DNA of 64,000 nt, taken from NCBI RefSeq assembly GCF_001677475.2, contig NZ_CP015229.1; one strand, 5' to 3'. Shown here one piece after another: positions 11,214 through 11,902 of the stretch (the first letter of the stretch is position 1; each line of letters starts with the position of its first letter). The position numbers and the translations under genes are program-made. The notes under the pieces are model-generated. The model was not told the DNA's origin, ran no database searches, and saw nothing but the letters and a program-made list of their open reading frames with translations. The DNA comes from Escherichia coli (GTDB taxonomy: Bacteria > Pseudomonadota > Gammaproteobacteria > Enterobacterales > Enterobacteriaceae).

Positions 11214-11231
11214 GTAAACACTAATGTTTAC
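11214..11231. promoter_or_regulatory. Inverted repeat GTAAACA-N4-TGTTTAC upstream of hicA; candidate HicB operator
   Basis: Perfect 7-bp arms read directly at 11214-11220 and 11225-11231, about 35 nt upstream of the hicA start. Confidence 0.3.
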
Positions 11232-11263
11232 TTTGTTGATATACTCAGCGGCAGGGAGGCGAT

Positions 11264-11440
11264 GTGAAACAAAGCGAGTTCAGACGTTGGCTCGAATCTC
11301 AGGGCGTCGATGTAGCGAATGGCAGCAACCATTTAAAACTAAGGTTTCACGGGAGGCGCAGTGTCATGCCGCGTCACCCCAGCGAAGAGATTAAAGAATC
11401 ATTGCGTCAAGCCATTCTGAAACTACTCAGTTTGAGTTAA
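11264..11440 (+). CDS. hicA: HicA mRNA interferase toxin (type II toxin-antitoxin)
   Basis: 58 aa from GTG 11264 with GGGAGG Shine-Dalgarno at 11254-11259 (VKQSEFRRWLESQGV...); absent from the ORF track because it is under 60 aa. Confidence 0.85.
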   Translation: MKQSEFRRWLESQGVDVANGSNHLKLRFHGRRSVMPRHPSEEIKESLRQAILKLLSLS

Positions 11441-11485
11441 TCGCCCATTAAAAAGGTTAATGACATGCGAGAGACAGTCGAAATT

Positions 11486-11902
11486 ATGCGTTATCCCGTC
11501 ACTCTTACACCCGCGCCGGAAGGCGGTTATATGGTTTCTTTTGTGGATATCCCTGAAGCGTTGACCCAGGGCGAAACTGTCGCTGAAGCGATGGAAGCGG
11601 CAAAAGATGCTTTACTGACCGCATTTGATTTTTATTTTGAAGATAACGAGCTTATCCCTTTACCTTCGCCATTAAATAGTCACGATCACTTTATTGAAGT
11701 GCCTTTGAGCGTCGCCTCTAAAGTATTGCTGTTAAATGCTTTTTTACAGTCAGAAATCACTCAGCTAGAGTTAGCCAGACGAATTGGCAAACCTAAACAG
11801 GAAATTACTCGCTTATTTAACTTGCACCATGCGACAAAAATCGACGCCGTCCAGCTTGCGGCTAAGGCGCTTGGCAAAGAGTTATCGCTGGTGATGGTTT
11901 GA
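11486..11902 (+). CDS. hicB: HicB antitoxin
   Basis: 138 aa from ATG 11486 (MRYPVTLTPAPEGGY...); alternative upstream ATG at 11465 gives 145 aa; immediately downstream of hicA. Confidence 0.85.
   Translation: MRYPVTLTPAPEGGYMVSFVDIPEALTQGETVAEAMEAAKDALLTAFDFYFEDNELIPLPSPLNSHDHFIEVPLSVASKVLLLNAFLQSEITQLELARRIGKPKQEITRLFNLHHATKIDAVQLAAKALGKELSLVMV

Follow-up and report, generated by a model that had tools for sequence, protein, structure and literature searches.

The window, a stretch of 64,000 nucleotides of Escherichia coli DNA, carries a hicAB locus at positions 11214 to 11902, the former being the first base of the left arm of an inverted repeat and the latter the last base of the hicB stop codon. 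The two genes lie on the same strand as a bicistron with the toxin gene first, the hicA stop at 11440 being followed by a hicB ATG at 11486 (45 nt later) or at 11465 (24 nt later). The divergently transcribed upstream neighbour, yncJ, bounds a 221-nt intergenic region in which the hicAB promoters lie. The features of the locus are:

10812..11042, minus strand: yncJ (DUF2554), matching Pfam PF10829 at 175 bits; yncJ is annotated in K-12
11214..11231, no strand: inverted repeat GTAAACA-CTAA-TGTTTAC with perfect 7-bp arms, the probable HicB operator hicO; it overlaps the -35 region of the putative P2 promoter
11237..11245, plus strand: TGaTATACT, an extended -10-like element found by pattern scan, candidate -10 of P2
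11253..11259, plus strand: Shine-Dalgarno sequence AGGGAGG of hicA, read from the sequence, 4 nt before the GTG
11264..11440, plus strand: hicA, 58 aa, GTG start, assigned by colinearity with K-12; its Pfam PF07927 match is below the cut-off
11486..11902, plus strand: hicB, 138-aa antitoxin and repressor with the Pfam domains HicB_lk_antitox and HTH_3; RefSeq start

The gene order rlhA-yncJ-hicA-hicB-ydcR is common, by annotation, to the window, K-12 and other E. coli chromosomes. The earlier note had described the interval as an intact hicAB toxin-antitoxin locus and named alignment with K-12 hicAB as the way to check it; this alignment runs over 943 columns with zero gaps, which confirms the orthologous locus, and both reading frames are uninterrupted and colinear with those of K-12. 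Overall DNA identity to K-12 is 96.9%, and positions 11183-11291, from the promoter region through the hicA start, are identical, the only upstream SNP being at 11182. The K-12 system (hicA, b4532/yncN; hicB, b1438/ydcQ; structures 6HPB, 6HPC and 6U0I) has the same chromosomal position, gene lengths and GTG start, while the window differs from it by six HicA substitutions, four of which are lineage-specific, by Q94L in HicB and by the SNP at 11182. The system is already known, as had been stated, and has solved structures: the flanking genes are those of K-12, and HicA and HicB are 90% and 99% identical, respectively, to the solved K-12 proteins. We are confident that this is the type II toxin-antitoxin operon hicAB of the E. 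coli chromosome, orthologous to and syntenic with that of K-12; the repeat at 11214-11231 is very probably its operator.

The antitoxin gene is complete. The open reading frame at 11465-11902 encodes 145 aa, and the RefSeq-style ATG at 11486 gives a protein of 138 aa, the form used in RefSeq annotation (417 nt); HicB homologues begin with MRYPV. The protein contains the HicB_lk_antitox (PF15919, 32.8 bits against a cut-off of 27) and HTH_3 (28.9 bits against 23) domains and is 99% identical to 6HPB_B and 6U0I_A, from which one residue differs. The sole substitution relative to K-12, Q94L in the 138-aa numbering, falls in a variable alignment column where leucine occurs naturally in other homologues. 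The recognition-helix region, QEITR...HATKID, is conserved across the homologues that share the operator motif described below.

The toxin gene is likewise complete and encodes 58 aa from the GTG at 11264 to the stop codon at 11438-11440, its 177 nt being the length of hicA in K-12-type and other E. coli annotation. A frameshift or premature stop was looked for by comparison with K-12 and none was found, and there are no indels. HicA matches the crystallised K-12 protein 6HPB_A over its full length with 52 of 58 residues identical (E = 9e-31). Its sole Pfam match, PF07927 (HicA_toxin), scores 25.6 bits against a cut-off of 27, compared with 30.9 bits for K-12 HicA and 33.2 bits for the nearest allele, the four lineage-specific changes lowering the score by 7.6 bits; an NCBIfam search returned no match for HicA or HicB. 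The remark that such a gene is easy to miss holds beyond this locus, since an intact GTG-initiated hicA is uncalled in a Hafnia contig (locus L012, 1277-1450) and unannotated in Cronobacter phage ENT39118 (locus L017, 1275-1451), which recalls how often a toxin gene of 58 codons with a GTG start escapes annotation.

Synonymous divergence in the 3' end of rlhA/ydcP (9851-10720) is 0.21 relative to K-12 and 0.25 relative to the otherwise nearest strain, and in yncJ, hicB and ydcR it is 0.08-0.09, which suggests a recombinational mosaic boundary near rlhA. The best identity of window positions 1-20000 among 5,426 complete RefSeq E. coli genomes is 97.6%, and that of the hicAB region is 98.1%; with such low best identities, the window appears to come from a lineage of E. 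coli that is sparsely sampled by complete genomes. GenBank draft assemblies, e.g. GCA_019135675.1, are 100% identical over 4.2 kb. An Rfam scan of the window found no family at the gathering score; the sole match close to the operon is a sub-threshold one to naRNA4/REP-like RNA in the rlhA-yncJ spacer (10772-10808, 23 bits where the gathering score is 59.5), probably marking a REP element.

The primary paper mapping hicO and the promoters P1 and P2 is reportedly that of Turnbull & Gerdes (2017), and Manav (2019) is said to be the hicAB structure paper. Toxin activity, its neutralisation and the logic of the two promoters are taken here from the literature, and the reading frames, synteny, identity of the cis elements and conservation of the palindrome from the sequence. 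In K-12, the transcript of the upstream, CRP-S/Sxy-dependent P1 yields HicA and HicB, and excess HicA derepresses P2 (PMC10865869, PMC11594946, PMC6957337, PMC8138530). HicB represses P2, which lies near the start of hicA, at the inverted repeat hicO, and the P2 transcript leads to HicB and no HicA (PMC10865869, PMC6957337). The role of the catalytic histidine of HicA, His23 in EcHicA, has also been described (PMC11594946, PMC8138530). On this model the 58-aa HicA would act as a ribosome-independent mRNA interferase with a dsRBD-like fold and His23 as the catalytic residue, and the N-terminal partial RNase-H-like domain of HicB would bind HicA and cover His23. The C-terminal Xre-type helix-turn-helix of HicB would form a dimer that binds the palindromic operator and represses transcription. 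P1, dependent on CRP and Sxy, would supply both proteins, P2, adjoining the hicA start, would be repressed by HicB, and excess HicA would lift this repression so that HicB only is made.

The inverted repeat noticed in the promoter region has the arms GTAAACA (11214-11220) and TGTTTAC (11225-11231), which are 100% complementary and separated by a 4-nt loop. It lies 33 nt upstream of the hicA GTG, has the same sequence in K-12 and is the only repeat of at least 7 bp with a loop of up to 10 nt in the yncJ-hicA intergenic region. Of the dinucleotide shuffles of this 221-nt region, 11% contain a perfect 7-bp repeat whose loop is at most 10 nt long, and 2.8% do so when it has to start in the last 60 nt; the density of such repeats in the real window is 0.32 per 221 nt. 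Taken alone, the repeat is thus within the chance level, which would fit a functionless palindrome, and its significance rests on conservation across species. The pattern GTAAnCA-N4-TGnTTAC with up to one mismatch has one match in the 64-kb window, the repeat itself, where 0.11 are expected. A second 7-bp repeat (CTTTGTT/AACAAAG, 11231-11237/11268-11274), which brackets the Shine-Dalgarno sequence and the start codon, is outside the predicted fold and unconserved and probably reflects chance.

The comparison was made with homologous loci fetched with their flanks from Salmonella, Superficieibacter, Xenorhabdus, Photorhabdus, Serratia, Hafnia, Cronobacter phage ENT39118 and Moraxella phage Mcat1, whose HicB proteins are 50-77% identical to that of E. 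coli. The plasmid collection yielded only distant HicB homologues (at most 50% identity), mislabelled chromosomes aside, and these were left out of the operator footprint. Promoter DNA upstream of the repeat is essentially unrelated between the homologues and E. coli (12-43% identity), yet the columns GTAA-CA--AATG-TTACT are invariant in a seven-locus alignment, and the two phages, ENT39118 and Mcat1, carry the version ATAAACA-N4-TGTTTAT. Each of the 15 loci fetched with an intact hicA has the core TAAnCA-N4-TGnTTA exactly once, 33-37 nt upstream of the start codon, and eight of the 15 are independent loci outside E. coli, in other genera and phages; the core is absent from all three fetched loci in which hicA is deleted. 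Twelve specified bases at a fixed distance from the start codon in eight independent loci, each with a single occurrence in about 3.4 kb, are hard to reconcile with a chance palindrome, which the conservation data appear effectively to have refuted already and to which we assign a negligible probability. The invariance of this core in otherwise diverged promoter DNA, together with reviews that place the hicO inverted repeat at P2, upholds the designation of the repeat as operator-like. A full-text literature search did not find the operator sequence in print; the reviews and the comparative footprint together argue strongly that the repeat at 11214-11231 is the published hicO.

The motif of the phage-type loci occupies the 17 nt that separate a -35 element (TTGACA, TTGTCA or TTGATA) from a -10 element (TACTAT, TATACT or TATAAT), which, judged from promoter architecture, would be the classic position of a repressor site. 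This arrangement also bears on the possibility that the repeat works as RNA, as a hairpin in the 5' leader transcribed from P1 that influences the translation of hicA or the stability of the mRNA. The repeat would indeed be transcribed from P1, which according to the literature lies upstream; G-U pairs extend the stem to 10 bp (-8.4 kcal/mol, z = -3.7 relative to shuffles), and the stem is present in the minimum-free-energy fold of the leader. However, the whole 96-nt leader folds no better than shuffled sequences (z = -1.2), and in the phages and prophages the motif lies between -35 and -10, upstream of any transcription start, so that there it acts as DNA rather than as transcript. Moreover, arm position 5 varies without preserving complementarity (GTAAGCA/TGATTAC in Salmonella, GTAAACA/TGATTAC in Hafnia), a variation that would fit a dimeric protein reading half-sites and not a stem. 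We regard the hairpin as very improbable and retain the repeat as a probable HicB operator.

From the element TGaTATACT (11237-11245), transcription would be expected to begin near 11252, where the Shine-Dalgarno sequence starts, with the repeat then covering the -35 region. Such a start would fit a P2 transcript that gives HicB only, and P2 may use TGaTATACT as its -10. A consensus sigma-70 scan flagged nothing upstream of hicA (neither P1, nor P2, nor TGaTATACT), and scans with simple CRP-N and CRP-S consensus patterns found no credible site near the repeat.

The HTH-type hicAB loci of phages, prophages and islands (Salmonella, Superficieibacter, Serratia and Hafnia; the Xenorhabdus and Photorhabdus islands; Cronobacter phage ENT39118 and Moraxella phage Mcat1) resemble the E. 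coli operon in having the toxin gene first, a GTG start and the operator core at the same distance from the start codon. The GTG start of hicA follows GGAGG in all homologues examined, the position of GGAGG being invariant, and HicA is 57-58 aa long in seven of the eight loci, the gene of the Moraxella phage being longer. Of the six homologue loci in bacteria, four are prophage-borne, 3' of an antiterminator gene that is of the Q type in Salmonella and Hafnia; three of these four continue with holin or lysis genes, and the layout of Cronobacter phage ENT39118 matches. The Xenorhabdus copy is near a phage-type integrase gene, and no recognisable phage genes were found within the stretch fetched around the Photorhabdus copy. 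The hicAB homologues closest to this one outside Escherichia (at about 1190-1290 in L005, L006, L011, L012 and L017) are morons of prophages or phages, and in four of these five loci holin or lysis genes come next. In the Hafnia prophage (L012, about 1455-1480) and the Cronobacter phage (L017, about 1455-1475) a GC-rich hairpin, CCAGCC...GGCTGG, is situated between hicA and hicB, where it may set the toxin-to-antitoxin ratio; this hairpin is absent from the E. coli locus.

The promoters of the phage-type and chromosomal loci differ. The phage and prophage copies, several of which sit between the Q antiterminator and the holin or lysis genes, have a near-consensus promoter with the operator as its spacer. 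Homologues in Enterobacterales contain a second operator-like repeat upstream, located 21 nt away and overlapping the -35 element in six prophage or island copies and 34 nt from the first repeat in Cronobacter phage ENT39118. Unlike these copies, the E. coli chromosomal locus has kept the promoter-proximal operator alone, lacks a recognisable -35 at the corresponding position, and its homologous -10 is weakened to TACTTT. This comparison suggests that the E. coli locus may descend from a phage moron, with later decay and rewiring of the promoter.

While the operon is intact, its HicA allele is unusual. The six substitutions relative to K-12 (C40S, D41E, P46S, K49Q, Q54L and G56S) are all within residues 40-56, the N-terminal 39 residues are all unchanged, and both His23 and Gly20 are retained, position 23 being histidine in 100 of 102 homologue representatives. 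Four of the substitutions, P46S, K49Q, Q54L and G56S, lie in the C-terminal helix and are lineage-specific: they are missing from the nearest allele, and none of them is present in 13 other E. coli HicA alleles of the same 90% cluster. The C-terminal motif KQLGL is changed to KLLSL. Q54 is kept in 98 and G56 in 84 of the 102 representatives, while S46 and Q49 occur naturally in seven and eight of them, respectively. An alignment of eight homologues had placed all four changes at invariant positions; this was rejected with the 102 representatives, where only Q54 and G56 are strongly conserved.

The pattern of nucleotide change in hicA is also distinctive. The gene differs from that of K-12 by six non-synonymous and five synonymous changes (pN/pS 0.32), compared with a pN/pS of 0.04-0.07 in the flanking genes, and the non-synonymous/synonymous ratios differ (Fisher p = 0.005). 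Relative to the nearest allele there are four non-synonymous changes and one synonymous change, all within codons 46-56, the probability that the four non-synonymous changes cluster within 11 codons being 0.014. The exact HicA/HicB allele pair is present at the same locus in GenBank E. coli draft assemblies, two of which match the window without a difference over 4,177 nt; its recurrence there indicates a natural minor lineage and no artefact. The allele presumably remains toxic; Q54L and G56S affect near-invariant positions, and with the raised pN/pS the function of the toxin in this lineage is not assured.

Loss of hicA is frequent in E. coli. DNA of the gene is found in 4,253 of 5,426 complete genomes, about 22% being without it. 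About one-fifth of the hicA-bearing complete genomes, a fraction estimated from hit-list rows taken at even intervals and from the 1,039 genomes with 90-95% identity, have a 22-bp deletion (equivalent to window positions 11381-11402) and an annotated frameshifted pseudogene, with hicB intact. The O104:H4 copy (L003, 1415-1569) has this deletion plus an in-frame TGA at hicA codon 7. In Nissle 1917 (L004) a deletion of 445 bp extends from within the left arm of the repeat to the middle of hicB (equivalent to window positions 11220-11663) and leaves a hicB fragment. Citrobacter rodentium (L007) has kept the synteny and lost the segment from just past the left arm to about hicA codon 46, and another Citrobacter has hicB only. 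The Nissle-type and C. rodentium deletions are independent, with left breakpoints within about 3 nt of one another, at or immediately past the end of the left arm of the palindrome; they may reflect palindrome-stimulated deletion, or the closeness of the breakpoints may be a coincidence. The losses of hicA with hicB kept in many genomes show that loss of the toxin with retention of the antitoxin is common, and the word intact is informative because in about 40% of complete E. coli genomes hicA is lost and hicB is at least partly kept.

These losses raise the question of whether the intact reading frame in the window could encode an attenuated or dead toxin, hicA drifting under relaxed selection in an early stage of the decay that deletion has finished in other lineages, with HicB kept as a working repressor and orphan antitoxin. 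Such drift would account for the clustering of changes in codons 46-56, with its chance of 0.014, for four changes that none of the 13 other E. coli alleles shares, two of them at the near-invariant positions 54 and 56, for a Pfam score 7.6 bits lower and now below the cut-off, and for a non-synonymous/synonymous ratio unlike that of the neighbouring genes; the repeated loss of hicA across E. coli and Citrobacter, with hicB persisting, would extend the same trend. On the other hand, catalytic His23, Gly20 and the whole N-terminal part are unaltered, two of the four residues are found naturally in homologues, and the counts of changes are small. A role of the C-terminal helix in activity would be hypothetical, and the allele is stable in dozens of assemblies without further damage. 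We consider attenuation possible but rather unlikely, and the toxin presumably still functions.

Several features of the locus recur in other systems. The RHH-type HicAB systems, such as HicA3B3 of Yersinia pestis, HicAB of Burkholderia pseudomallei and HicBA of Streptococcus pneumoniae, share the HicA dsRBD-fold RNase, whose catalytic histidine is covered by HicB, and, as described for K-12, HicB autorepression via palindromic operators and derepression by excess HicA (PMC11594946, PMC8138530). Their HicB proteins differ in having a ribbon-helix-helix domain and forming tetramers. The toxTA operon of Haemophilus influenzae, like hicAB, is toxin-first and has a CRP-S/Sxy promoter and an antitoxin-repressed internal promoter; in natural populations toxin-inactivating deletions are frequent and the antitoxin is kept (PMC6957337), the same pattern of toxin loss and antitoxin retention as in our survey of hicA in E. 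coli. However, toxTA has no sequence homology to HicA or HicB (PMC6957337). Set beside these known systems, the locus adds little beyond correct annotation.

Two further readings may be put forward, tentatively and as possibilities rather than expectations: that the HicA of this lineage is a naturally attenuated toxin, the decay of the toxin preceding disruption of its reading frame, and that the chromosomal hicAB of E. coli and Citrobacter derives from a moron located between Q and the lysis genes of a lambdoid phage, its strong two-operator promoter having been reduced to one operator and rewired to CRP and Sxy.

For E. coli, the intact hicAB is a real character state. The unusual tail of HicA offers a cheap experimental test of the role of the conserved C-terminal KQxGL motif in toxicity. 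For the family, TAAnCA-N4-TGnTTA provides a sequence-level definition of the operator of HTH-type HicB and can be used for annotating such promoters elsewhere.
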